The translations under genes and the position numbers were made by a program. Below the pieces are notes generated by a model. It made no database searches, was not told the origin of the DNA, and worked only from the letters and a program-made list of their open reading frames with translations. A stretch of 32,000 nucleotides of DNA from Planctopirus limnophila DSM 3776. GTDB lineage: Bacteria > Planctomycetota > Planctomycetia > Planctomycetales > Planctomycetaceae. Location: contig NC_014148.1 in the NCBI RefSeq assembly GCF_000092105.1, forward strand, positions 4,830,001 to 4,862,000, in the 5' to 3' direction. The first letter of the stretch is position 1, and each line of letters opens with the position of its first letter. This document shows, piece after piece, positions 8,681 to 22,840 of the stretch.

Positions 8681-9865
8681 ATGAATCCTTCTGATACCAA
8701 CATCTCCGCCCATTCGAGCTCCATGTCCGAACGGGAGACTACTGAGAAATCACATGCGAGTTTTCAGTGGCCGCAGTACCTGCTGGCGATTGTGCTCGTG
8801 GTTCTCGCAACATTTCTCCGGGCAATTGTCGATCCACTCTTTGGCGAAAAATTTCCTTACATCACTTATCTGGCTGCCACCTCGACCATCGCCTGGTACT
8901 GCGGTCCTCGTCCTGCGACCTTCGCGCTCACTCTGGGTTTTCTTTCGGCTTTTTACTTCTTTGCCAGCCCGAGAGGTTCTTTCTATGTCAGCGGGATCGA
9001 TGCACAGGTTGGTGCTGTCTCATATATCGCCACAGGTGCAGGGATTATCTATTTGTTCTTTCTTGTCCAGCGAGCCGAATGGGAAGCCCGAGAGAACGCA
9101 GATCGACTGTGGAGAAAGCAATCGCTGCTGCAGAACGAAATGCGCGAAAAAGAATCGGCCCAGCAAGCTGTGGTGGGACTCCTGAGAAAGCTCGTTCAGG
9201 CTCAAGAGGAGGAACGACGGAGAATTTCCCGGGAACTGCACGATCAATGTGGACAGGATCTGACGGCTTTAAGACTGGCACTTAAACTGATCGAGGATTC
9301 GCTCCCGAACGAACCAGGCCAGACGGCATACTTTCGCACAGCCTCCGAATTGATTGATCGCATCTCCAGCGAGATTCATACGCTGGCCCTCAATCTCAGG
9401 CCTCCCGAACTTGATGATCACGGACTCGTTTCCGCGATTCGCAGTCACCTGTTGACATGGTGCGAAATCTCGGGTCTGCGGGCTGACTTTGAATCTCGAA
9501 TCAGTCCTGAAGTGGTCATTCCTGAAGAGGTCGAAATTGCCCTCTACCGCACATTTCAGGAATCACTCACCAATGTGGCCCGGCATGCCCAGGCCAGTCA
9601 CGTCAGTGTTCTGCTGATGGCCCACGATCAACGCCTGGATCTGATCATTGAGGATGATGGCGTGGGTTTCGAGGTTCATCGGCAGCAGATTGTCGAGGTG
9701 CGTCCCTCACGCCTGGGTTTACTGGGAATGCAGGAGCGACTTCTAGCAGTGGGTGGATCGCTCGAAATTGAATCATCCCCCGGCAACGGTACAACTGTGT
9801 TCGCGAAAGTCCGGTTGGATCACTTCGGAAAGCTATCGCATGACGATTCAAGTCGCGCTCATTGA
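8681..9865 (+). CDS. Sensor histidine kinase, NarL/DegS type (DUF4118-like membrane domain + HisKA_3 + HATPase_c)
   Basis: N-terminal 4-TM region resembling the KdpD/DUF4118 module, then a coiled-coil linker. H-box is ERRRISRELHDQCGQDLTAL (HisKA_3). ATPase motifs are ESLTNVARHA, EDDGVGF and GLLGMQERL..GG. Confidence 0.85.
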   Translation: MNPSDTNISAHSSSMSERETTEKSHASFQWPQYLLAIVLVVLATFLRAIVDPLFGEKFPYITYLAATSTIAWYCGPRPATFALTLGFLSAFYFFASPRGSFYVSGIDAQVGAVSYIATGAGIIYLFFLVQRAEWEARENADRLWRKQSLLQNEMREKESAQQAVVGLLRKLVQAQEEERRRISRELHDQCGQDLTALRLALKLIEDSLPNEPGQTAYFRTASELIDRISSEIHTLALNLRPPELDDHGLVSAIRSHLLTWCEISGLRADFESRISPEVVIPEEVEIALYRTFQESLTNVARHAQASHVSVLLMAHDQRLDLIIEDDGVGFEVHRQQIVEVRPSRLGLLGMQERLLAVGGSLEIESSPGNGTTVFAKVRLDHFGKLSHDDSSRAH

Positions 9866-10493
9866 AGATCACGAACTCGTGCGTACGGGCTTAAAACTGC
9901 TCATTGAACGCCAGAAGGATCTTCAAGTCGTTGGAGAAGCCGCTGATGGAGCCGAAGGGCTCAAGATTATTGCGCGCACATTGCCTGATGTCGTCGTTCT
10001 CGATTTGAGTATCCCGCATCTCAATGGGTTTGAACTACTTGAACAGCTTCAACATCAGAAGCGTCCCCCTAAGGTTCTTGTGGTCACTGCCAATGAAGAC
10101 CTCGACTCTCTGCAAAGATCATGGAACCTGGGTGCTGCAGGACATCTGGCCAAAAGATCTGCAGCCGATGAACTCATCGTGGCCATTCGCAAAATTGCAG
10201 CTGGCGAGAAAGTTTTCCCTTCGAAGGAAGAATCGAAAGCGGTGAAAACTCTCGGTTTCAACGAAACTTCAGGTCGTCTGACCGGCGCGGAAAGTCTGAG
10301 CGAGCGAGAAACGGAAGTCCTGAAGCTGATTGCTGCCGGACACATGGCCAAGGAAATCGCTGCCAAACTCGATATCAGCCTGAAAACTGTCGAGACGTAC
10401 AAATCCCGCGGTATGCAGAAACTCTCTCTGAGAGGTCGCACGGAGCTGGTGCGTTTCGCCATGAAGATGGGCTGGTTGAACGATACCCCTTGA
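9840..10493 (+). CDS. Response regulator, NarL/LuxR family (REC + LuxR-type HTH)
   Basis: ATG at 9840 gives MTIQVALIEDHELVR... The REC domain has the acceptor context VVVLDLSIPHLNG. The C-terminal LuxR HTH is LSERETEVLKLIAAGHMAKEIAAKLDISLKTVETYKSRGMQKL. It overlaps the kinase stop by 26 nt. The longer 9753 start would sit deep inside the kinase gene. Confidence 0.85.
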   Translation: MTIQVALIEDHELVRTGLKLLIERQKDLQVVGEAADGAEGLKIIARTLPDVVVLDLSIPHLNGFELLEQLQHQKRPPKVLVVTANEDLDSLQRSWNLGAAGHLAKRSAADELIVAIRKIAAGEKVFPSKEESKAVKTLGFNETSGRLTGAESLSERETEVLKLIAAGHMAKEIAAKLDISLKTVETYKSRGMQKLSLRGRTELVRFAMKMGWLNDTP

Positions 10494-10613: not shown

Positions 10614-12170
<1,557 letters not shown>

Positions 12171-12335: not shown

Positions 12336-13550
12336 TTAGTCTCTGGATTTTTGACGGCTTTTCCAAAAGCTGTAAATCAGCCCATCCAGTCCAAACCAGC
12401 GACCGGTGGGCATGGCAGCAATCGCCAGAAGCGTTAAAGCTTCCATATTGACTTTGTTGACAATGTAATTGTGCTCGATCCCCGGAGCTTCGGGAGTTCC
12501 CGGCCAGGGTGGTGCTGCCAGATAAAACAGCATCAACAGACCGGCACCCCCCACAGCAGCAAACCGGGTTCCCAGACCGATAATCAGCAGGAAACCAAAA
12601 ATCGTCAGGCTCCACATGGTTCGCCAACTGAGAACTCGACCTTCGGTCCAAGGTTGAGGAACAGGCCCCATGGCCAGTTGATCTGAGGAAAGCAGCTTCT
12701 CGGCAGAATCACGCAGTTCCTGTTCAAGAGCCTGAACCGGCCCCACAACACGCCGGCGAAGATCCTGCAATTCACGCCACTGAGTTTCGAGATGATCCCA
12801 TTGGTACTTCGTTTTCGCCTGAGCATGATTGGCTTCGTAGCGTTCAATCTGTGCCTGATAAAGCTCAATGTCGCCAATCCGCTTCTCGATTTCTTTGCCG
12901 TCTTTCTCACGTTGAATGACGCCGACTCGCTCCGGATCGCCCTTCAACAGCACTGCCAGGCGCTCTTTGTAACTTAGCCTCGTTCCCTGATTGTAAAGCG
13001 AATTCACCGCATTCTTGTAAGCCACGGCAGGTGGTGTATCAGCCGCAGAAGCATCCACCAGACTCAAAAGTCGATCACGTTCGGCGGCCAGCAGATGCTG
13101 CTTCCCATCGACAGACAGGATCTTCTTCGCAGGATCGAACTGCGCCAGCCGACCCATTTTCTCCTGCGTAACTCCCGGAGGAAGTGCCTCGAGTTTCGCG
13201 CTGAACTGAGCAGGCCCATTGAGCAGATACATCAGGCGACCGGCTTCAGGAGCATCGTCAGCGATGTTGTAATGTGCCAGAAACCGATTGGCATAGTCGT
13301 CCCACTTGTTCGACATGTAATCGTAGTTGACCCAACGCAAGTCGTTGGGGTCGCCCAGCAGACTCCGGAAGAACCCACGCAAGGGCCCGGTTGCATTCTT
13401 CAGGTAGCCTTCGGCAGACCATGGTTGAGGCGACTTTTGCGTATCAATCTTCCACCAGCCTTCGTAAAGCAGGTGCCAACCGATAAACAATCGCAAAGTG
13501 ACCAGTAGCACACAGGCCAGTTGGGAGATCTTGCGGTCTTCGCCGTTCAC
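12336..13550 (-). CDS. DoxX/DoxD-like membrane protein interrupted by a soluble coiled-coil insert of about 270 aa
   Basis: GTG start with GAGG 7 nt upstream. The N-terminus LRLFIGWHLLYEGWWKI ... AEGYLKNATGPL resembles the first DoxX/DoxD helix and loop. Three further TM helices occur only after about residue 305 (WSLTIFGFLLIIGLGTRFAAVGGAGLLMLFYL ... ALTLLAIAAM). The segment between them is hydrophilic and heptad-rich. Confidence 0.6.
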   Translation of the reverse strand: MNGEDRKISQLACVLLVTLRLFIGWHLLYEGWWKIDTQKSPQPWSAEGYLKNATGPLRGFFRSLLGDPNDLRWVNYDYMSNKWDDYANRFLAHYNIADDAPEAGRLMYLLNGPAQFSAKLEALPPGVTQEKMGRLAQFDPAKKILSVDGKQHLLAAERDRLLSLVDASAADTPPAVAYKNAVNSLYNQGTRLSYKERLAVLLKGDPERVGVIQREKDGKEIEKRIGDIELYQAQIERYEANHAQAKTKYQWDHLETQWRELQDLRRRVVGPVQALEQELRDSAEKLLSSDQLAMGPVPQPWTEGRVLSWRTMWSLTIFGFLLIIGLGTRFAAVGGAGLLMLFYLAAPPWPGTPEAPGIEHNYIVNKVNMEALTLLAIAAMPTGRWFGLDGLIYSFWKSRQKSRD

Positions 13551-13795: not shown

Positions 13796-14884
13796 TCAGA
13801 ATGAGGCGGCAGGTGAGCGGGCAGGGTAAAGAATCTCTGGAGGGACGTTGATGATTGTGGCTTCCGCAGCCGTCTGACGACTGGACTGGGTAAACAACAA
13901 CACACCGACATCTGTTGAATTATCACAGAGAAGTCGAGTCTTTTCGACCCCCAGCACGAAAAAAGCCGTGGAAAGTGCGTCTGCCAGGGCCGCTCGTGCC
14001 GTTAATACGCTGACAGAAAGGACGTTTTCGACAGGCCAGCCCGTGCGAGGGTCCAGAATATGACCATACCGCCGTCCACCGACTCGAAACCCCTGTGCGG
14101 CTGTTCCGCTGGTTCCCAGGGCCTGATTCTTCAATAAAATCGTGCCCCACGAATGCTGCGGCAACAGAGGATCGCGTAATCCGACAGGCCAGCCGCCATG
14201 CCCCGCATGGTCTCCCAGAGCCAGGACACTGCTCTTTCCACCATGCACCAGCCAATGGTCGATCCCACGCGAACTCAAATGCCTCCCGGCACAATCGACC
14301 GCATATCCTTTACCAATCGCACCCAGATTGAGCTCCACACCGGGCTGGCGATATCGGACCGTTTTTGACGCCACATCCAACTGAATCTGGTCCATGCCCG
14401 TCAGTTGCCGTGCAGCTTCAAGTTCGGCTGTACTTGGCAGGCGACCTTCCTTCCGAGCTGTTCTCCAGACGGCAATCAGTGGCCCAGTGGTGGGATCAAA
14501 CGCCCCTTCCGTTTTCGCGACCAGATCCCGGGCTTCGATCAATAAGTCGAACAGTTCACCGCTGACTTCGACAGGCTCAAGCGCTGCCGTTTGATTAATG
14601 ATCGCCAGCTCGGCTTCGGGACGATAGATCGTCATCATCGCTTCGAGCTGATGCACCAGATCCAGTGCTTCGGAAGCGGCCTCCACCTGCAGAGCCGGGC
14701 CATCAGGATTCAGGATCACGTCGAAATGGCAGGCCATGGCTGTGGTTTGCAGCAGCAGGACTGGCCCACGAGTTGGTACCTCTGTAGTTGGCAAGTCGGC
14801 AGATCGAAGTGCCGCTTCAGCAGCAATCTGTTGTGCCAGCCGACCCGTCAGAAAATCACGTCGATCAGCCGAAGGATTCGTCAC
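13796..14884 (-). CDS. apbE: FAD:protein FMN transferase (ApbE family), Tat-type signal
   Basis: ApbE motifs are NLGAIGKGYAVD, ALGTSGTAAQGF and HILDPRTGWP. The longest ORF starts at a TTG at 15049. I prefer the GTG at 14884, which gives MTNPSADRRDFLTGRL (Tat motif near the N-terminus) and 362 aa, a typical ApbE length. The start remains uncertain. Confidence 0.8.
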   Translation of the reverse strand: MTNPSADRRDFLTGRLAQQIAAEAALRSADLPTTEVPTRGPVLLLQTTAMACHFDVILNPDGPALQVEAASEALDLVHQLEAMMTIYRPEAELAIINQTAALEPVEVSGELFDLLIEARDLVAKTEGAFDPTTGPLIAVWRTARKEGRLPSTAELEAARQLTGMDQIQLDVASKTVRYRQPGVELNLGAIGKGYAVDCAGRHLSSRGIDHWLVHGGKSSVLALGDHAGHGGWPVGLRDPLLPQHSWGTILLKNQALGTSGTAAQGFRVGGRRYGHILDPRTGWPVENVLSVSVLTARAALADALSTAFFVLGVEKTRLLCDNSTDVGVLLFTQSSRQTAAEATIINVPPEILYPARSPAASF

Positions 14885-15352
14885 TTCTGTTACCTGCCAA
14901 ACCTTTAATTGTTTTTGAATTATCTTCGGTGAACAGAGCCCAAAGCAACTGAGTCTCTCGGGATTGTCACTGAGAAAAGTGCGGCCAGAGAGGCGATCAA
15001 AATCAAAAATTCGCGATTCCTTCGCTAAAACGGTCTTGCCGTTGTTCAAAACTCAGTAAATAATCCCGACAGTTCGCACAAACGTAGTGCGACGGTAGAC
15101 CGGCTGGAGATGTGATCGGAGGTGACCCCGATCGAATCCGGCGGACGATCTATAAACTGTAGAAAGGAGGTGGTCGTTTGAATTGTCTTAGTTCTAGTCG
15201 CCAGCGAGGTGGCAAATCCTAGTGACAGTCGACGGACTGGCTTAGAGCCACCGTCTCGTAGCGGCCATGTCCTTAGAGAACGTTCTGCGAATTCGATTCT
15301 TCGTGATCCCGAATTCCACTAAGAACACTCGATAGGGTATCGCACGAGCCTC

Positions 15353-15390
15353 GGGGTTGGAAATCGCAAGGTTTCCAACCCCTCGCTCTT
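15353..15390 (+). terminator. Orphan intrinsic-terminator-like hairpin inside a 650-bp ORF-free region
   Basis: Perfect 11-bp stem GGGGTTGGAAA (15353-15363) / TTTCCAACCCC (15372-15382) with an 8-nt loop. On the + strand it is followed by TCGCTCTTT. No protein gene on either strand ends next to it. Confidence 0.45.
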
Positions 15391-15702
15391 TGATAGCCCC
15401 GCAATTTTACAGTCCCGCAAATTGAACCTCGCGCATCATCGGGCGACTTCCCCGAAGCACATCAGTTTGCATGAGACACTTAGACATCACAGATCGACGT
15501 CTGCAGTTTTCACAAGCCCTTAGCCTGGCTTCCCATCTTCAGCCTGCATTTCCGAAGAATTTTGCACGGCGTGTCACCTTTCTCACATCTTCCTGATCTC
15601 AATGGTCATGTGGCCTGACTGGCCAATCGAATTCGTGGCAAAGGGTATGAGCTTGCGAGAACTTTCTCTACGTTAAGCTCACCCGGTATTGAGGAAAATC
15701 AC

Positions 15703-16020
15703 ATGCATCGTCGTACCGTCTGGATGTGGGCTGGCGCAGGTTTGATGGGTCTGGTGGTTGGTTGTGGTCAAGCAGCCTCAACCACAAGTTCAGCCCCCGC
15801 AGGAGGAAGTGGTGCTGCCATGGCTCCCATGATGGGAGAGCCGAAGATGAGTGAACCGAAGATGAATGATGGCATGATGGCCGGCGAAAAAATGGCTGGC
15901 GAAAAGATGATGGCAGATCCCAAAATGTCAGATGGTATGATGGCACCAGCCATGAAAAGTGACGATAAGATGAAACCTCCCGCGATGATGGCACCAGATA
16001 TGGCCGGCGAGAAGAAGTAA
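15703..16020 (+). CDS. Methionine-rich lipoprotein (MrpX-like candidate periplasmic oxidant sink)
   Basis: GAGGAAA lies 6 nt upstream of the ATG. It has a signal peptide with a lipobox (LMGLVVGC). There are 18 Met in the last 68 residues, in short repeats (EPKMS/EPKMN, DGMMA x2, AGEKM x2). It sits directly upstream of msrP on the same strand. Confidence 0.75.
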   Translation: MHRRTVWMWAGAGLMGLVVGCGQAASTTSSAPAGGSGAAMAPMMGEPKMSEPKMNDGMMAGEKMAGEKMMADPKMSDGMMAPAMKSDDKMKPPAMMAPDMAGEKK

Positions 16021-16080
16021 GCTTCCGGCTGTCAGCACTGGCCCACATTCGTCTTTTGAAACGTCGAGAGTGAGGTGGGA

Positions 16081-17067
16081 ATGTCCACAGATCCAAAGAT
16101 TTCTGATGCGGAAGTAACACCGCCTGAACTCTATTTCAATCGCCGGCAGATCATGCGGGCAGCCATTGCATTGGGCACTGTCGGTGCCACAGTTGGCATC
16201 TATCGTGCATTCAAACAACCTGCCCAGAAAGAGGCCAACACCGCCGCGATCGAGGGTCTGGTACGTCCTGCTGATACGGATGCCAATCTGGCCAGCCAGG
16301 GGTTCAAAGTGGATGAACCTTTGACCCCCGAGATTGACATTATCAATTACAACAACTTCTACGAGTTCACCACTTCGAAAGAAGGGGTGGCCAGAGCCGC
16401 TGCAAATTTCAAGACTGAGGGCTGGAAAATCGACGTCGGTGGGTTGGTCGATAAGCCCACCACTTTCACCATGGATTCGCTGAAAGCACTCAGCCCACCC
16501 GAAGAACGCATCTATCGCATGCGCTGCGTCGAAGCCTGGTCGATGGTCATTCCCTGGGCCGGCATTCCCTTAGCCCGAATTCTTGAAGCCGTTCAGCCCC
16601 AATCTGCAGCCAAGTATGTGGCGTTCGAAACATTGTTCGATCCTGTCCGCATGCCCGGGCAGGCCTCGCCTGTTCTCGACTGGCCCTATGTCGAAGGTTT
16701 GCGGCTCGACGAAGCCATGCATCCTTTGACTCTGCTCGCAACAGGACTGTATGGCAAAGAATTACCACCCCAGGATGGTGCTCCCGTGCGGCTGGTCGTT
16801 CCCTGGAAGTACGGCTTCAAAGGCATCAAATCGATTGTCAAAATTTCGCTGTTGGCCGACGAACCCCCCACCAGTTGGAATCGGTTCGCACCTCACGAGT
16901 ACGGTTTCTTTGCGAATGTGAATCCGGAAGTCGATCATCCCCGCTGGAGCCAGGCGACTGAACAGCGTATTGGCGAACTGGGGCGTCGCAAAACCCTCAT
17001 GTTCAACGGTTACGAAGAGCAGGTCGCTTCTCTCTATACAGGAATGAATCTGCGAAAATTCTACTGA
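16081..17067 (+). CDS. msrP: Protein-methionine-sulfoxide reductase catalytic subunit MsrP (YedY; molybdopterin enzyme)
   Basis: Near-collinear by eye with E. coli MsrP: Tat motif FNRRQIM, then NNFYEF, ERIYRMRCVEAWSMVIPWAG, KYVAFETL, YVEGLRLDEAMHPLTLL, GAPVRLVVPWKYGFKGIKSIV, VDHPRWSQATE, NGYEEQVASLY. The start is ATG 16081 or GTG 16075. Confidence 0.9.
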   Translation: MSTDPKISDAEVTPPELYFNRRQIMRAAIALGTVGATVGIYRAFKQPAQKEANTAAIEGLVRPADTDANLASQGFKVDEPLTPEIDIINYNNFYEFTTSKEGVARAAANFKTEGWKIDVGGLVDKPTTFTMDSLKALSPPEERIYRMRCVEAWSMVIPWAGIPLARILEAVQPQSAAKYVAFETLFDPVRMPGQASPVLDWPYVEGLRLDEAMHPLTLLATGLYGKELPPQDGAPVRLVVPWKYGFKGIKSIVKISLLADEPPTSWNRFAPHEYGFFANVNPEVDHPRWSQATEQRIGELGRRKTLMFNGYEEQVASLYTGMNLRKFY

Positions 17068-17186
17068 TCCCTGTCCGCCGATAGGGGGCCGCCGCTCAGG
17101 AGCAGCCATCAGGGCAACTTTCCGTTGGCTTCGAAGATGGAATTGAATTGTCCGCGTTAATCCATGCATCTCGGGAAGGCCGCCGC

Positions 17187-18944
17187 GTGAGTGAGATTCA
17201 GTTCTGGAAGCTGCTGCTGATTATCAATGGTCTCATCCCCCTGGCACTTTTGGGCTGGGATGCGTTACAGGGTAAAACCGGTGGCAACGCCATTGGACAG
17301 GCCATCCATACCACAGGCTACGTCTCCCTGCTCTTCATCATGGCGTCCCTCGCTGTGACACCACTTCGAGTTGTCACGGGTTGGACGACCCCGGTCGCCT
17401 TTCGTCGTATTCTCGGGTTGTTTGGCTTCTTCTATGCGGCCATTCACTTCGGAATTTACTTTGGATTTGATCGCGCTTTGAGCCTGTCGAGTACCTTCGA
17501 CGAAATCGCGAAACGCAGGTTCCTACTTGTAGGCATGACCGCACTGATGCTCATGGTCCCCCTGGCTGTCACTTCCACAAACGCCATGATCAATCGACTC
17601 GGCGGCAAACGCTGGAAGCTCTTGCATCGCACAGCCTACATCGTAGGAGCACTGGCCGTCCTCCATTACTTCATGCAGGTGAAAGCCGATATTCGCCAGC
17701 CCCTCGCCTTTGCTGTTGTCCTGGGCGCCTTTCTGCTCATGCGTCTTCCTTTGAAAAAGCTCCTGCAAACTTCCAAGTCTCACTCTCCCGTCCACACCTC
17801 CGTCAAATCACCAGCCACTGCGACAGGTCGGCCCAGGTTCTGGACAGGTGAACTCAAGCTGGCGCGTGTCTTTCACGAAACTTCTCTTGTAAAGACCTTT
17901 CGCTTCGTGGCTCCCGATGGCAACAACCTGCCGTTTGCCTTTGAACCCGGACAGTACCTGACATTGAAAGTACTCATCGACGGAAAGTTCGTCAGTCGCT
18001 CGTACACCATCGCATCATCCCCCAGCCAATCGGGCTATTGCGAAATCTCTGTCAAGCGGGAGGAACATGGCCTCGTCTCGCGGTATCTGCACGAGCACCT
18101 GCAAGAAGGCGATCTTCTCTCAATATCGGCACCAGGTGGAAAGTTCTTCTTCAATGGTCGCCAGGCGAAAAGTGTCGTTTTCATCTCGGGTGGTGTGGGA
18201 ATCACACCTCTCATGTCGATGACTCGTTACCTCACCGATACCTGCTGGCCCGGCGAAATCCACTTTCTCGTTGTCGATCGATCACCCAAAGATTTGATCT
18301 TTTACGACGAATTGCGACATCTGGCCCATCGATTTCCCAATCTTCATGTGGCCGTCACATTGACTCGATCTCCAGAGATGGATGATTGGATGGTGCCGGA
18401 TGGCTGGCGGCGAGGTGAAGGACGGATCAATACCTCGTGGCTGCGCGAATGCCTGCACGATTGGCCCCAGCGCCAGGTCTATCTCTGCGGCCCCGACGCC
18501 ATGATGGATGCCACTCGTGAGCTTCTGACTGAACTTGGAGTCCCTGCCGAGCAGATCTTTACCGAAGCCTTCGTCTCACCAGCTGCACAAAAAGAGGCGA
18601 CTGAGATTCTGCCTGTGGAGTCTCCAGCCAATACCACAGCGACCTCCTCACGCGAACTCACCACGCACTCCGCAACTCCGGGCGAGTTTCAAGCCACCTT
18701 GCAATCGTCCCGGCAAACCATCGAATTGAGTGGCTACAACAATCTGCTCGAAGCGGCTGAAGCCGCGGGACTCGACTGGCCCTACGATTGCCGCTCCGGT
18801 GTTTGTGGCCAGTGCCGTGTGCGACTCATCAGTGGCGAAGTCGTGATGGATGTCCACGAAGCTCTTACGCCACAGGAACGAGCACAAGGCCATATCCTCC
18901 CCTGCCAGGCCCGCGCCTTCAGCCATCTGGTGATTGAGGCCTGA
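17187..18944 (+). CDS. msrQ: MsrQ (ferric-reductase-type heme-b membrane domain) fused to an FAD/NAD(P)H oxidoreductase and a plant-type 2Fe-2S ferredoxin domain
   Basis: The N-terminal 200 aa or so align with E. coli MsrQ, including the His ligand contexts (FYAAIHFGIYF; WKLLHRTAYIVGALAVLHYFMQV, with the two His 13 residues apart). Next come the FNR-type motifs RSYTIAS, VVFISGGVGITPLMSM and YLCGPDAMM. Last is a C-terminal ferredoxin, CRSGVCGQCRVRL...LPCQA. It is one uninterrupted ORF. The longest ORF starts at TTG 17148, and GTG 17187 has GGAAGG 7 nt upstream. Confidence 0.85.
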   Translation: MSEIQFWKLLLIINGLIPLALLGWDALQGKTGGNAIGQAIHTTGYVSLLFIMASLAVTPLRVVTGWTTPVAFRRILGLFGFFYAAIHFGIYFGFDRALSLSSTFDEIAKRRFLLVGMTALMLMVPLAVTSTNAMINRLGGKRWKLLHRTAYIVGALAVLHYFMQVKADIRQPLAFAVVLGAFLLMRLPLKKLLQTSKSHSPVHTSVKSPATATGRPRFWTGELKLARVFHETSLVKTFRFVAPDGNNLPFAFEPGQYLTLKVLIDGKFVSRSYTIASSPSQSGYCEISVKREEHGLVSRYLHEHLQEGDLLSISAPGGKFFFNGRQAKSVVFISGGVGITPLMSMTRYLTDTCWPGEIHFLVVDRSPKDLIFYDELRHLAHRFPNLHVAVTLTRSPEMDDWMVPDGWRRGEGRINTSWLRECLHDWPQRQVYLCGPDAMMDATRELLTELGVPAEQIFTEAFVSPAAQKEATEILPVESPANTTATSSRELTTHSATPGEFQATLQSSRQTIELSGYNNLLEAAEAAGLDWPYDCRSGVCGQCRVRLISGEVVMDVHEALTPQERAQGHILPCQARAFSHLVIEA

Positions 18945-19092
18945 CAAGCTGACCTGGACTCCTCTTGATGGGTTGATCTCACGCACCCACGCCGGCTTTG
19001 TGCTAACATAAGGCCTGAGCCGTCAGCCGATGATTTGTCGGTGAAATTCAAATTCTGCACGCTGACGTTGGCTCGTTCGAACTCCGCGCGGA

Positions 19093-21213
19093 ATGAATCA
19101 TCGGGAAAGCCTCGCAATGCAACCGGCGACCTTTGAAAGCCTTGTCGATTCACAGACTCCTGATCTCTGGCAGATTGAAACTCGTGGCCCTGGCCCGCAA
19201 GGTGCTTTGCCACTCACCGACGAACTGTTGAGAAATGCTCCCAGTGGCGATCTGTTTGGTCTCACTCAAAATGCCGGCATGGGCTGGCCTGTCGCCGAAG
19301 TCTTGAGGCCGCAATACCTCATTTTAAGTACACAAGGTGGTATTCGCGGCGAAGATGGCCGCCCGATTGCTCTGGGTTATCACACGGGCCATTACGAAGT
19401 CGGCCTGTTGATGCGTGCTGCTGCCGAAGAAATCGATCGTCTGGAGGGATTACCCTTTGCCGGGTATGTGAGCGATCCTTGTGATGGCCGTACCCAAGGC
19501 ACAACGGGGATGATGGACAGCCTGCCCTATCGGAATGACGCCGCCATTGTGCTCCGCCGGTTGATCAGGTCACTCCCAGTGCGGGAAGGTGTCGTGGGTG
19601 TGGCTACGTGCGACAAAGGCCTTCCCGCCATGATGATGGCACTGGCTTCGATGCACGATCTGCCGTGTGTGATTGTCCCTGGCGGAGTCACTTTGCCTCC
19701 TGTTTCGGGCGAAGATACCGGGAAAGTCCAGAGTATCGGTGCCCGTTATGCCAAAGGCGAAATCTCGCTGGAACATGCTGCCGAAGCAGGCTGCCGCGCC
19801 TGTGGTTCAGCAGGTGGTGGTTGCCAGTTTCTCGGGACAGCCGCCACGTCGCAAATTGTGGCTGAAGCGTTAGGAATGTCTTTACCACATGCCGCTCTGG
19901 CACCTTCAGGCCAGCCGATCTGGTTGGATATTGCCGTCCGTTCAGCCAGAGCTGTCGTGACACAGCGGCTGACAGGTCTTTCGATGAACAAGATCCTCAC
20001 TGCCGATTCGCTGCATAATGCGATGGTCGTGCATGCAGCCTGCGGTGGCTCGACCAACTTGCTGCTGCATATCCCGGCTATCGCCTTTGCTGCCGGTCTC
20101 GAGCGGCCCAAGGTCGAAGAGTGGAACCGGATCAACCTCGCGACACCCCGGTTGGTGGATTGCCTTCCCAATGGGCCCGTAGGTCACCCCACTGTGCGAT
20201 TCTTCCTGGCTGGAGGTGTTCCGGAACTCATGCTCCATTTGCGTGCCTTAGGCCTCCTCAAGCTGAATGCTTTGACAGCCACTGGCAAACCACTCGGTGA
20301 CGTTCTCGAATGGTGGGAAAAGAGTGAACGTCGCGAACGTGTCCGTCAGGTATTGCATGAGCGGGATGGCGTCGATCCCGATGACGTGGTGATGCCCCCC
20401 GCACTGGCGAAGGCTCGTGGATTGACCAGTACTGTCTGCTTCCCTCGCGGGAATATTGCCCCCGAAGGTTCGGTTGTCAAAGCCACTTCCATCGACAAGT
20501 CCACATTGGATGCGAATGGTGTCTACCACAAGATTGGCCGCGTGCGGTTTTTTGCAACGGAACGGGAAGCGATTCGTGCGGTCAAAGGCCAGTCTCAGCC
20601 CGCAGTCCAGGCAGGAGATATTCTCATTCTTGCCGGGCGTGGGCCCTTGGGCTGTGGGATGGAAGAAACGTATCAAATCACGTCCAGCCTGAGGTATCTC
20701 CCCTTCGGAAAAGAGGTGACATTGATCACGGATGCCCGCTTTTCGGGGGTTTCGACGGGGGCCTGCATTGGTCACGTCGGCCCGGAAGCTCTCGCGGGTG
20801 GCCCGATTGGGAAACTCCGCGATAATGATCTCATCGAAGTACGGATCGATACGCGGAACTTGACGGGAAGTATAAACTTCATTGGCGAAGGTGATGCCAC
20901 GTTCACAGCCGAACATGGTGCTAGAATTCTAGCAGGGCGTACACCTCACCCGAAATTAGCTCCAGACCCAGAACTTCCGGCCGACACCAGGCTCTGGGCA
21001 GCATTGCAGCAGTTAGGAGGCGGAACCTGGGGAGGATGTGTCTACGATGTCGACGCCATTGTCAACGCCCTCGCAAATGCACCTCGGATGGGGACTGCTC
21101 CCTGCAGTTTATCTGGTGAAGGAAGTTCCAGCAGCAACCCCGCGGCTGGCTCCTCAAATCCAGAATCCGGCACAGACCTGCTCGCCACCACGCATGGACG
21201 AAGCAGCTGCTGA
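19093..21213 (+). CDS. IlvD/Edd-family sugar-acid dehydratase, YjhG/YagF (D-xylonate dehydratase)-like
   Basis: Collinear by eye with E. coli YjhG: [121 protein letters not shown] low-complexity tail of about 45 aa (S/G/P/N-rich) extends past the homologous end. Confidence 0.88.
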
Positions 21214-21319
21214 TGTTGATCAATCGGAGCATCGCCAGAACATGAACTGCCTTCGTGCCATGTTTGCGGCTCTGAGCAAGCATGCCTTACCAATCCTCAA
21301 TGCCCCATTAGCTTTCGGG

Positions 21320-22840
21320 ATGAGTACAAGACGGCATCTGGCGAATCTCTTGATCGCGTTGGCACTTCTGCTGATCGCTGGTTTTTTTGCTCCGCTCACC
21401 CAGGCCAGCGATTCACCCACAGTCTTAATTCCACAGCAGGCCAATCCTCAGGAAGTCACCGCAGAGGATGGCTATCGGATCCTCAAATCCAAACCTTTTC
21501 TTCCGGCAGACTTTCATGATCGCCACCTGGAGCAGCTCTGGACCGTCTGGCCCGAGCCCTGGAAAACGAAGTATGCACAGGCTGCCCCGCACGAGAAGCG
21601 GCAGCTTCTCTTCTCGTACTATGGCTTGATTGAAGATCCCCAGCAAAAGTCTGCCGAATCCAGCAAGGAGAATGCTGTTTCTGGGACTCCCGCATTGGGA
21701 TATCTCAAAACAGAATCCGGGAATTGGGTGATGACCTGCCTCGCCTGCCACGGCGGTAAAGTGGCCGGCCAATCACAGGCGGGCCTTCCCAATTCACACT
21801 TTGCCCTGCAAACGCTTGCCGAAGATCTTCGTCAGGTGAAGCTCGCTAACAAAGAGACTCTCGCACATCTGGAAACGGCCTCACTGACGATTCCACTCAA
21901 TGTGACCAATGGCACGACCAATTCCGTCATCTTTGGAGTGATCCTGGGGACCTTCCGCCGCCCGGACATGTCGGTTGATCTGGCACGAACAGTTCCGCCA
22001 GTCATTCATCACGATGTCGATGCTCCACCCTTCTGGAATGTCAAATATAAAACCTCGCTCTACTGCGATGGTTTCGCTCCCAAGTATCACCGCCCTCTCA
22101 TGCAGTTCATGCTCTTGCCAGTGAACGGCCAATCGACAATCTACAGTTGGGAAGATGATTTCCGAGCCATCGAAAAATGGATCGAATCTGTCGAGGCACC
22201 GGCCTATCCCTTCCCCGTCGATGACACACTGGCCGCCTCAGGCCGAGTCGTCTTCGAGAAAAACTGTGCCAGCTGTCATGGCACTTATGGCCAGGGAACC
22301 CTCGTTTCAGATCGGGAATTTCCCGCCGACACCCCGCTGCATGCGCTCACCACAGCCAAACGCGATGTTGTGAAGTACGAACAGAAAGTCATTCCCATCA
22401 GCGATGTGGGAACTGATCCGGTTCGACTGCAGGCATTAACGGCTACACATCGCCAATGGATGAAAGATGGCTGGATGAGCGATTACGGCAATCATCCAGT
22501 GATCATCGAACCCGCCGGTTATGTCGCACCTCCACTGGTCGGTATCTGGGCCAGTGCTCCGTATTTTCATAATGGCAGCGTCCCCACGCTCTGGCATGTC
22601 CTTCATCCCGAGAATCGCCCTGCCGTCTGGAAACGAACTGAAAATGGTTACGATACGAACAAAGTAGGTCTCGAAGTGGAAGAGTTCGGCCGATTGCCGA
22701 CAGGTATCAAAACTCCCGCTGAAAGACGCCGCTACTTCGATACGAAGCTCAAAGGCAAGTCATCTGTCGGGCACGATTACCCGAGTGCACTGACCGCCGA
22801 TGAGAAAAAAGCTCTCCTGGAATACCTCAAGACTTTGTGA
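21320..22840 (+). CDS. Exported diheme c-type cytochrome (distant cytochrome-c-peroxidase/MauG-like features)
   Basis: ATG 21320 gives a signal peptide, MSTRRHLANLLIALALLLIAGFFAPLTQA. There are two CXXCH motifs (CLACHGG, CASCHGT). SAPYFHNGSVPTLWHVL resembles the conserved PYFHDGS..TL segment of the CCP/MauG family. The upstream part of ORF 21038.. overlaps the dehydratase and is probably not translated. Confidence 0.7.
   Translation: MSTRRHLANLLIALALLLIAGFFAPLTQASDSPTVLIPQQANPQEVTAEDGYRILKSKPFLPADFHDRHLEQLWTVWPEPWKTKYAQAAPHEKRQLLFSYYGLIEDPQQKSAESSKENAVSGTPALGYLKTESGNWVMTCLACHGGKVAGQSQAGLPNSHFALQTLAEDLRQVKLANKETLAHLETASLTIPLNVTNGTTNSVIFGVILGTFRRPDMSVDLARTVPPVIHHDVDAPPFWNVKYKTSLYCDGFAPKYHRPLMQFMLLPVNGQSTIYSWEDDFRAIEKWIESVEAPAYPFPVDDTLAASGRVVFEKNCASCHGTYGQGTLVSDREFPADTPLHALTTAKRDVVKYEQKVIPISDVGTDPVRLQALTATHRQWMKDGWMSDYGNHPVIIEPAGYVAPPLVGIWASAPYFHNGSVPTLWHVLHPENRPAVWKRTENGYDTNKVGLEVEEFGRLPTGIKTPAERRRYFDTKLKGKSSVGHDYPSALTADEKKALLEYLKTL

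Follow-up and report, generated by a model that had tools for sequence, protein, structure and literature searches.

Whether the membrane haem protein MsrQ draws its electrons from the quinone pool or from the cytosol is disputed, as early genetics pointed to quinols and later biochemistry to cytosolic NAD(P)H delivered via the flavin reductase Fre. The question is raised directly by a locus of Planctopirus limnophila DSM 3776, where, within a 32,000-nucleotide stretch of contig NC_014148.1 (positions 4,830,001 to 4,862,000; hereafter the window, from whose first letter coordinates are counted), a single gene joins an MsrQ domain to a reductase with predicted FAD, NAD(P)H and [2Fe-2S] sites and follows msrP, the gene for the periplasmic methionine sulfoxide (Met-SO) reductase. 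A first-pass annotation had described this gene as a natural MsrQ-FNR-ferredoxin fusion with a NOX-like layout that feeds periplasmic MsrP, and this core reading stands on the combined evidence of domains, residue matches, synteny and topology. Rather than a system of a new kind, the fusion is an uncharacterised, moderately widespread version of the known MsrPQ system, already visible in databases, which hold hundreds of copies of it. A conserved MsrQ-reductase fusion beside msrP nevertheless amounts to comparative evidence of the 'Rosetta-stone' type for the cytosolic-donor model, and suggests that fusion-bearing bacteria power periplasmic protein repair straight from NAD(P)H.

The fusion gene and its domains

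The open reading frame (ORF) was first reported as one uninterrupted frame of 598 codons, and it does run from 17148 to 18944 (+) without an internal stop. Its first codon is TTG at 17148; the true start is probably the GTG at 17187, because the GenBank entry ADG69582.1 (585 aa) agrees with it and the equivalent 'MSEIQF' is where most homologues start. The protein matches WP_148227192.1 (598 aa) at 100% identity, and its UniProt entry, D5SWI9, carries the automatic name MsrQ. The gene and its parts are as follows, with the evidence for each in brackets.

17148..18944 (+), whole MsrQ-FNR-ferredoxin fusion ORF, 598 codons from TTG, or 585 aa from the likely GTG start at 17187
17187..17780 (+), MsrQ/YedZ-type ferric-reductase domain (FRD), aa 14-211, with six transmembrane (TM) helices (Pfam, NCBIfam, AlphaFold2 (AF2) and residue mapping)
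17781..17834 (+), cytoplasmic linker from TM6 to the FAD domain, aa 212-229, low confidence (AF2 predicted local distance difference test (pLDDT) <50 for aa 211-226)
17835..18149 (+), FAD-binding beta-barrel (FAD_binding_6), aa 230-334, with the motif R284-S-Y286-T287 (Pfam, conservation, AF2, Foldseek/phmmer)
18168..18575 (+), NAD(P)H-binding Rossmann domain (NAD_binding_1), aa 341-476, with G348-GVGITP and C447-G-P (Pfam, conservation, AF2)
18576..18677 (+), disordered linker tethering the ferredoxin domain, aa 477-510 (AF2 pLDDT <50 for aa 477-508)
18678..18944 (+), plant-type [2Fe-2S] ferredoxin domain (Fer2), aa 511-598, plus the stop codon (Pfam, four-Cys motif)

The membrane half

Pfam matches were counted when above the gathering score, and NCBIfam equivalogs were judged at their curated cut-offs. 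Ferric_reduct matches above its gathering score at aa 57-170, and the MsrQ equivalog NF003831 scores 150.4 bits, against a cut-off of 130, over aa 16-210. The domain is 31% identical to Escherichia coli MsrQ (sequence from NC_000913), and in the alignment R77, R78, H91, L131, S135, W147, H151 and H164 of the E. coli protein correspond to R86, R87, H100, L139, S143, W156, H160 and H173 of the fusion, respectively. In E. coli MsrQ, a single b-haem is ligated by H91 and H164, and an FMN on the cytoplasmic side is held by R77, R78 and H151 in a pocket lined by W147, L131 and S135 (Carpentier et al., 2025, PMC12525009). By correspondence, the haem of the fusion would be ligated by H100 and H173 only, and R86, R87, L139, S143, W156 and H160 would make up an FMN pocket. 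The first-pass annotation had placed a haem-ligand pair of histidines, spaced H-x13-H, in WKLLHRTAYIVGALAVLHYF; the spacing is x12 (H160-x12-H173), and homology to E. coli MsrQ assigns H160 to the FMN pocket and leaves H173 as the only haem ligand of the two.

The signature shared by YedZ and STEAP proteins, in which the first haem-ligand His is swapped for Arg (Zhang et al., 2013), is present in the fusion, with R86 at the first-His position of TM3 and one ligand each in TM3 (H100) and TM5 (H173). TM3 and TM5 contain the histidines H100, H160 and H173 only, and the four histidines of NOX proteins (two H-x12-14-H pairs) are not found. Judged by these residues, the membrane domain is a true single-haem, flavin-pocket MsrQ and not the bis-haem core of a NOX, and we infer that the fusion would bind haem b and FMN and pass electrons to MsrP. 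A search of PDB sequences returned no solved structure of MsrQ or of the fusion.

The reductase half

Three Pfam domains match the remainder of the protein above their gathering scores, namely FAD_binding_6 (aa 242-334), NAD_binding_1 (aa 345-457) and Fer2 (aa 517-590), and NAD_binding_6 matches at 21.2 bits, under its cut-off of 22.2. The motifs first reported for FAD (RSYTIAS, with R284, Y286 and T287) and for NAD(P)H (GGVGITPLMSM, G349-P354, and YLCGPDAMM, C447-G448-P449) are all found in the ORF, together with the ferredoxin cluster motif C548-x4-C553-x2-C556-x29-C586. The earlier description of a PaaE/Hcr-type reductase holds at the level of class, the order FAD_binding_6, NAD_binding_1 and C-terminal plant-type Fer2 being that of PaaE, Hcr and GbcB, but does not extend to orthology with any of them, as the scores fall under every equivalog cut-off (GbcB, 235 against 500; Hcr (PRK10684), 182 against 383; PaaE, 179 against 421). 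The Fre model gives 67 bits against a cut-off of 230.

In a structural comparison, Foldseek hits for the reductase half include phthalate dioxygenase reductase (PDR; 2pia), the reductase domain of CYP116B46 (6laa) and 7ylr, and the FAD domain is matched to FNR-family structures by both Foldseek and phmmer. The entire chain aligns to SpNOX (8qt6, 481 columns) and DUOX1 (6wxv).

Topology and predicted structure

An AF2 model built on a 120-sequence alignment has a mean pLDDT of 85 and a predicted template modelling score (pTM) of 0.53, and places TM helices at residues 16-40, 48-77, 81-108, 124-141, 153-176 and 183-211. The six-TM ferric-reductase fold of MsrQ, with both N- and C-termini cytoplasmic, is thereby predicted for the fusion. 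Lysines and arginines number 17 on the predicted cytoplasmic side versus seven on the periplasmic side, and no hydrophobic stretch occurs downstream of residue 230; on these grounds, the FAD, NAD and Fer2 domains, C-terminal to TM6, are predicted to be cytoplasmic, which the first-pass annotation had left for a topology check. The two segments modelled as disordered, 211-226 and 477-508, fall in the two linkers, of which the one between TM6 and the FAD domain varies in length and sequence among aligned homologues and the one at aa 477-510 is the most variable part of the homologue alignment.

Conservation and spread of the fusion

The homologue set comprised 120 sequences, listed when 5.8 billion protein clusters were searched with a word index. 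The fusion is carried by at least 120 clusters at 90% identity and by about 45-50 clusters at 50% identity, and the listed homologues are 47-74% identical to it (about 50%) and have the same four Pfam domains in every case (120/120). The motifs RR-x12-H and H-x12-H and the four-Cys motif are likewise found in 120/120. Invariant positions in the alignment include R86, R87, H100, S143, W156, H160 and H173 in the MsrQ half, R284, T287, G349-V-G351, T353-P354 and C447-G-P449 in the reductase half, and C548, C553, C556 and C586 in the ferredoxin domain; the FMN-pocket residues R86, R87, L139, S143, W156 and H160 are invariant or ≥90% conserved. The haem histidines and ferredoxin cysteines, whose conservation the first-pass annotation had singled out as decisive, are thus kept throughout the set. 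Because the residues concerned are invariant or ≥90% kept in 120 homologues at about 50% identity, the alignment indicates that every predicted cofactor site is under purifying selection.

A query spanning the junction (aa 86-345), run against 1.84 billion representatives at 50% identity with E ≤ 1e-30, gave 88 matches, of which about 45-50 span both halves within one alignment; the shorter matches look truncated, stopping mid-domain. Every full-length representative of the family terminates in the ferredoxin domain. With each GTDB species represented by a single genome, a scan found at least 32 full-length fusion loci in the Planctomycetota, Myxococcota and Acidobacteriota. The carriers among the Planctomycetota include Pirellula, Schlesneria, Limnoglobus, Mariniblastus, Rubripirellula, Phycisphaerales and Tepidisphaeraceae, those among the Myxococcota include Kofleriaceae, Archangium and other Myxococcales, and the fusion occurs in three Planctopirus species. 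The combination of Ferric_reduct, FAD_binding_6, NAD_binding_1 and Fer2 is therefore neither rare nor unannotated, with several homologues already labelled by JGI as 'ferredoxin-NADP reductase/DMSO/TMAO reductase YedYZ heme-binding membrane subunit'.

The msrP operon

Two genes on the same strand lie immediately upstream of the fusion.

15703..16020 (+), Met-rich lipoprotein-like ORF, 105 aa (signal peptide, LVVGC lipobox, Met count)
16075..17067 (+), msrP, catalytic subunit of the periplasmic molybdopterin Met-SO reductase (NF003767, Pfam Oxidored_molyb)

The msrP product reaches 460 bits on the MsrP equivalog NF003767 (cut-off 207) and has a twin-arginine-like signal (RRQIM) at aa 23, and the gap between msrP and the fusion ORF is 80 bp. 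Conservation of the neighbourhood was measured by tblastn of the neighbours in the window against 80 fetched loci. In all 29 full-length fusion loci that have upstream DNA, distributed over the Planctomycetota, Myxococcota and Acidobacteriota, msrP lies immediately 5' of the fusion on the same strand (61-69% identity).

The Met-rich ORF ends 54 bp before msrP; Met makes up 21% of its mature part, where repeats including GEKM, PKM and DGMM occur. Met-rich secreted or lipoprotein ORFs (17-28% Met) also stand directly 5' of msrP in five related loci (L003, L006, L007, L018 and L024) and nearby in a sixth (L008). The exact sequence of the Met-rich ORF is missing from a collection of 15 billion proteins, so it may be unannotated. 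By analogy with MrpX, it is probably a sacrificial oxidant sink that serves as an MsrP substrate and is encoded by the first gene of the operon. Given the conservation of msrP 5' of the fusion and of Met-rich ORFs 5' of msrP, the functional unit is predicted to be [Met-rich protein]-msrP-msrQ::reductase. A scan of 15000-19200 for promoters and terminators gave nothing beyond shuffled expectation.

In E. coli, the two-component system HprSR adjoins msrPQ and controls it. In the window, genes for a histidine kinase (HisKA_3, with DUF4118) and for a response regulator of the NarL/LuxR type lie at 8681..10493 (+), ~5 kb upstream of the msrP operon.

Proposed electron path

The path considered probable, with good though not full confidence, runs from NAD(P)H through FAD, [2Fe-2S], FMN and haem b to the molybdenum cofactor (Moco) of MsrP. 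A hydride from NAD(P)H would reduce FAD, from which the [2Fe-2S] cluster would receive electrons one at a time. Tethered by its flexible linker of ~30 residues, the ferredoxin domain would then dock on the MsrQ domain at its cytoplasmic face, which is positively charged, and reduce the FMN in the MsrQ pocket. The FMN would in turn reduce the periplasm-facing haem b (H100/H173), and the haem the Mo-molybdopterin of MsrP, exported by the twin-arginine translocation (TAT) system. Envelope proteins would have their Met-SO reduced by MsrP, and the Met-rich lipoprotein encoded upstream is probably among them; it would then act as a recyclable oxidant sink. In this scheme, the fused reductase would stand in for the trans-acting Fre proposed in E. 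coli. The steps up to the cluster follow the established chemistry of PDR/PaaE-class reductases, those from FMN through haem to Moco follow the biochemistry of E. coli MsrPQ (PMC12525009), and the hand-over between cluster and FMN is suggested because both sites are invariant. The first-pass path of NAD(P)H, FAD, [2Fe-2S], haem b and Moco is supported in its order and left out the FMN step, which the invariance of the FMN-pocket residues across the family makes probable.

Several points weigh against this reading or limit it. The least certain step is that from [2Fe-2S] to FMN, as the cluster may reduce the haem more directly, and the inter-domain geometry of the AF2 model is unreliable (pTM 0.53), so that distances from the cluster to FMN or haem are not obtainable from it. 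The residues that come after the second strand in the NAD domain vary across the family, and a preference for NADH or NADPH is unreadable from them. Cofactor content and activity are, for all members of the family, deduced from sequence. Stand-alone MsrQs that are 45-64% identical to the MsrQ domain of the fusion exist; therefore, fusion is not required for function. In a rough neighbour-joining (NJ) tree of MsrQ domains, without support values, most fusions group together and a few stand-alone and fused proteins are mixed: fused P0170 (530 aa) and P0156 (542 aa) sit among stand-alone MsrQs, and stand-alone P0194, P0236 and P0259 fall inside the main fusion cluster. This placement may reflect repeated fusion or fission, or simply poor resolution or truncated gene calls.

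A broader reading is held rather less firmly than the path itself, though it is still favoured. The family would be a self-sufficient, NAD(P)H-driven transmembrane wire (FAD to [2Fe-2S] to FMN to haem b) powering periplasmic Met-SO repair, would form with the Met-rich lipoprotein an envelope oxidant-scavenging cycle, would offer independent evidence for NAD(P)H and not quinones in MsrPQ generally, and would bring to the NOX/STEAP/MsrQ superfamily an iron-sulfur relay that is new to it.

Neighbouring genes and reductase relatives

Five other genes of the window lie near the operon.

10614..12170 (-), Gfo/Idh/MocA oxidoreductase with a TAT signal
12336..13550 (-), 404-aa protein with a DoxX/DoxD-like C-terminal membrane domain
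13796..15049 (-), ApbE (FAD:protein FMN transferase) with a TAT signal (Pfam)
19093..21213 (+), IlvD/Edd-family dehydratase, downstream of the fusion
21038..22840 (+), RoxA-like dihaem cytochrome c protein (longest ORF), downstream of the fusion

In the tblastn comparison, the ApbE, IlvD, DoxX-like and RoxA-like neighbours are conserved at none of the related loci, and the minus-strand string of apbE, DoxX-like and Gfo/Idh/MocA genes is not conserved beside the fusion in other genomes. The IlvD/Edd ORF ends in a C-terminal tail of ~110 residues that has no domain match, and the dehydratase ORF overlaps the RoxA-like ORF by ~175 bp; the true start of the latter probably lies further downstream.

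Outside the MsrQ fusions, the closest relatives of the reductase half (40-48% identity) are proteins of 620-720 aa, for example L057 4909..7053 (Stieleria magnilauensis), L035 5458..7347 (Novosphingobium soli), L039 1100..3154 and L071 4960..7029, with about 40 further such loci among L034-L081. Their C-terminal part contains FAD_binding_6, NAD_binding_1 and Fer2; Pfam matches nothing in the first ~330 residues, which show a signal peptide, the conserved motif 'EEHAxHHP', a Met/Gly-rich stretch and two to three hydrophobic helices. A multihaem cytochrome c (MtrC/MtrF domain II/IV-like) is encoded by the next gene in L035 and by the next but one in L057 (both of the two loci examined), and L057 additionally has a NOX-like FRD-FNR gene. 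These proteins may be another NAD(P)H-to-periplasm electron-export module, present in the Planctomycetota, Alphaproteobacteria, Gammaproteobacteria and Nitrospirota.

Alternative explanations

The layout of an FRD N-terminal to a predicted cytoplasmic FAD/NAD(P)H dehydrogenase, here of the FAD_binding_6/NAD_binding_1 type, is that of NOX proteins, and the protein could accordingly be imagined as a bacterial NOX-like enzyme or ferric reductase that reduces O2, Fe(III) or another periplasmic acceptor, with its adjacency to msrP secondary. The order of a TM ferric-reductase domain and an FNR-like dehydrogenase does recall SpNOX and DUOX, a weak NAD_binding_6 match is present, and the exposed outer haem that MsrQ and SpNOX have in common is able to reduce diverse acceptors (PMC11031084); but Arg at the first haem-His position and only three histidines point to a single haem with a flavin pocket, the MsrQ equivalog is above its cut-off, and msrP is upstream in 29/29 loci, which makes this explanation improbable. 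Somewhat less probable again is that the quinone pool still feeds the MsrQ domain and that the fused reductase drains electrons to NAD(P)+ or another partner, or senses redox state. Quinols were reportedly proposed as the donor from E. coli genetics (Gennaris, 2015), and ubiquinone co-purifies with E. coli MsrQ (PMC12525009). The potentials of the MsrQ haem and MsrP Moco, however, are both ~-250 mV, at which quinols are thermodynamically unsuitable (PMC12525009), and this disfavours transfer from quinol to the MsrQ haem and favours low-potential input from NAD(P)H and an Fe-S cluster; a covalent NAD(P)H/FAD/[2Fe-2S] module with invariant motifs is also most simply taken as an input, as in PDR, PaaE and CYP116B-type proteins.

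The presence of apbE two genes upstream and within 2.1 kb (Pfam 233 bits, TAT-like signal) brings to mind an ApbE-dependent, flavinylated 'MsrQ-like' system for extracytosolic electron transfer, like those of Méheust et al. (2021), who report PF01794 proteins with C-terminal NAD-binding domains beside apbE. Such a link is very unlikely, as those systems are two-haem and mostly actinobacterial, the apbE gene of the window is divergently oriented and belongs to the other gene string with the DoxX-like protein and the TAT-exported Gfo/Idh/MocA oxidoreductase, and no ApbE homologue occurs within 6 kb at any of 32 related loci. The link was rejected, since ApbE was never conserved in tblastn against the 80 related loci and the scan for flavinylation motifs was empty: no ORF of the window has a canonical flavinylation motif or is an FMN_bind gene, and a substrate for ApbE is thus not evident. 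Least probable of all, to the point of being negligible, is that the fusion arose from an assembly or frameshift error or that the gene is a pseudogene in decay, in favour of which nothing was found. The contig is a complete 5.42-Mb genome and the cofactor residues are conserved, and an artefact of sequencing or assembly is excluded on comparative grounds, because the same architecture is found in three Planctopirus species, in 120/120 listed homologues, in more than 120 sequence clusters and in at least 32 species genomes. The reading preferred over all four is that of an MsrQ supplied with electrons by its own fused reductase.

Comparison with known systems

The literature search found no paper that describes or tests the MsrQ-FNR-ferredoxin architecture or uses it in the debate on the donor, and none that reports it as a well-characterised family with another function, which the first-pass annotation had allowed for. 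Von Rozycki et al. (2004) reportedly mention YedZ fused to electron carriers in their title. Among the modular extensions of bacterial FRDs, Zhang et al. (2013) list one labelled 'Ferredoxin/Fer2 (M8)'. The words 'fused' and 'fusion' are absent from the 2025 study of MsrQ, according to which the protein 'lacks a soluble cytosolic dehydrogenase domain' (PMC12525009), and ferredoxin fusions are not mentioned in the ACRATA paper.

E. coli MsrPQ with Fre as its trans-acting donor is said to be the subject of work by Juillan-Binard (2017) and Caux (2021). The E. coli system resembles the one described here in its msrP-msrQ pair, its six-TM MsrQ with the same haem-ligand and FMN-pocket residues, and a proposed donor from the FNR superfamily of NAD(P)H enzymes. 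As the first-pass annotation had it, MsrQ is a stand-alone protein in E. coli, where msrQ is a separate gene of 211 codons and Fre is the proposed donor in trans (PMC12525009). The predicted donor in the fusion is, by contrast, covalent and carries prosthetic FAD and [2Fe-2S] (PDR/PaaE class), whereas Fre is a flavin reductase with no cofactor of its own, and shuttling of FMN would be unnecessary in the fusion.

Like the fusion, NOX proteins (SpNOX, CsNOX, NOX2 and DUOX) begin with a six-TM ferric-reductase domain and continue into a cytoplasmic FAD/NAD(P)H domain; unlike it, they have two haems on four histidines, no membrane flavin pocket and no iron-sulfur domain, and reduce O2, whereas the fusion has Arg86 in place of the first His, one predicted haem with an FMN pocket, a C-terminal [2Fe-2S] domain and, probably, MsrP as its acceptor. 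STEAP2-4 share a YedZ/STEAP-type single-haem domain, a cytoplasmic-side flavin site and a fused NAD(P)H dehydrogenase (Zhang et al., 2013; PMC12525009), but the STEAP dehydrogenase is N-terminal and F420-oxidoreductase-like, no Fe-S cluster is present and metal ions are reduced. GbcB, Hcr, PaaE, PDR and CYP116B have the same order and motifs of FAD/FMN barrel, NAD(P)H domain and plant-type Fer2, and the CYP116B 'self-sufficient' P450 is alike also in that the reductase is fused to its own acceptor; the fusion differs from these FNR-[2Fe-2S] reductases in that its acceptor would be a membrane haem-flavin domain instead of an oxygenase and its module is membrane-anchored.

Among systems built around MsrP, the MrpX-YedY1-YedZ1 system of Azospira suillum scavenges hypochlorite (Melnyk, 2015, PMC4436054) and similarly encodes a Met-rich secreted protein beside msrP/msrQ, but the Met-rich protein described here is a predicted lipoprotein, likened to MrpX by Met content and position, the neighbouring MsrQ carries a fused reductase, and the window shows no SigF/NrsF pair. 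In Streptomyces Sco3746, MsrQ-like and MsrP-like modules occur in one Sec/Tat dual-targeted protein (PMC5449189), which is likewise a natural fusion involving an MsrQ module, although MsrQ is joined there to its periplasmic catalytic partner and not to a cytoplasmic electron donor. The single polypeptide of the P. limnophila type would permit spectroscopy and cryo-electron microscopy of the NAD(P)H-to-haem chain without rebuilding a transient Fre-MsrQ complex. Alongside the C-terminal FNR domain of NOX, the N-terminal F420-like domain of STEAP, and MsrQ with Fre in trans, the fusion would represent a fourth route by which the ferric-reductase-domain superfamily has come by an electron-input module.

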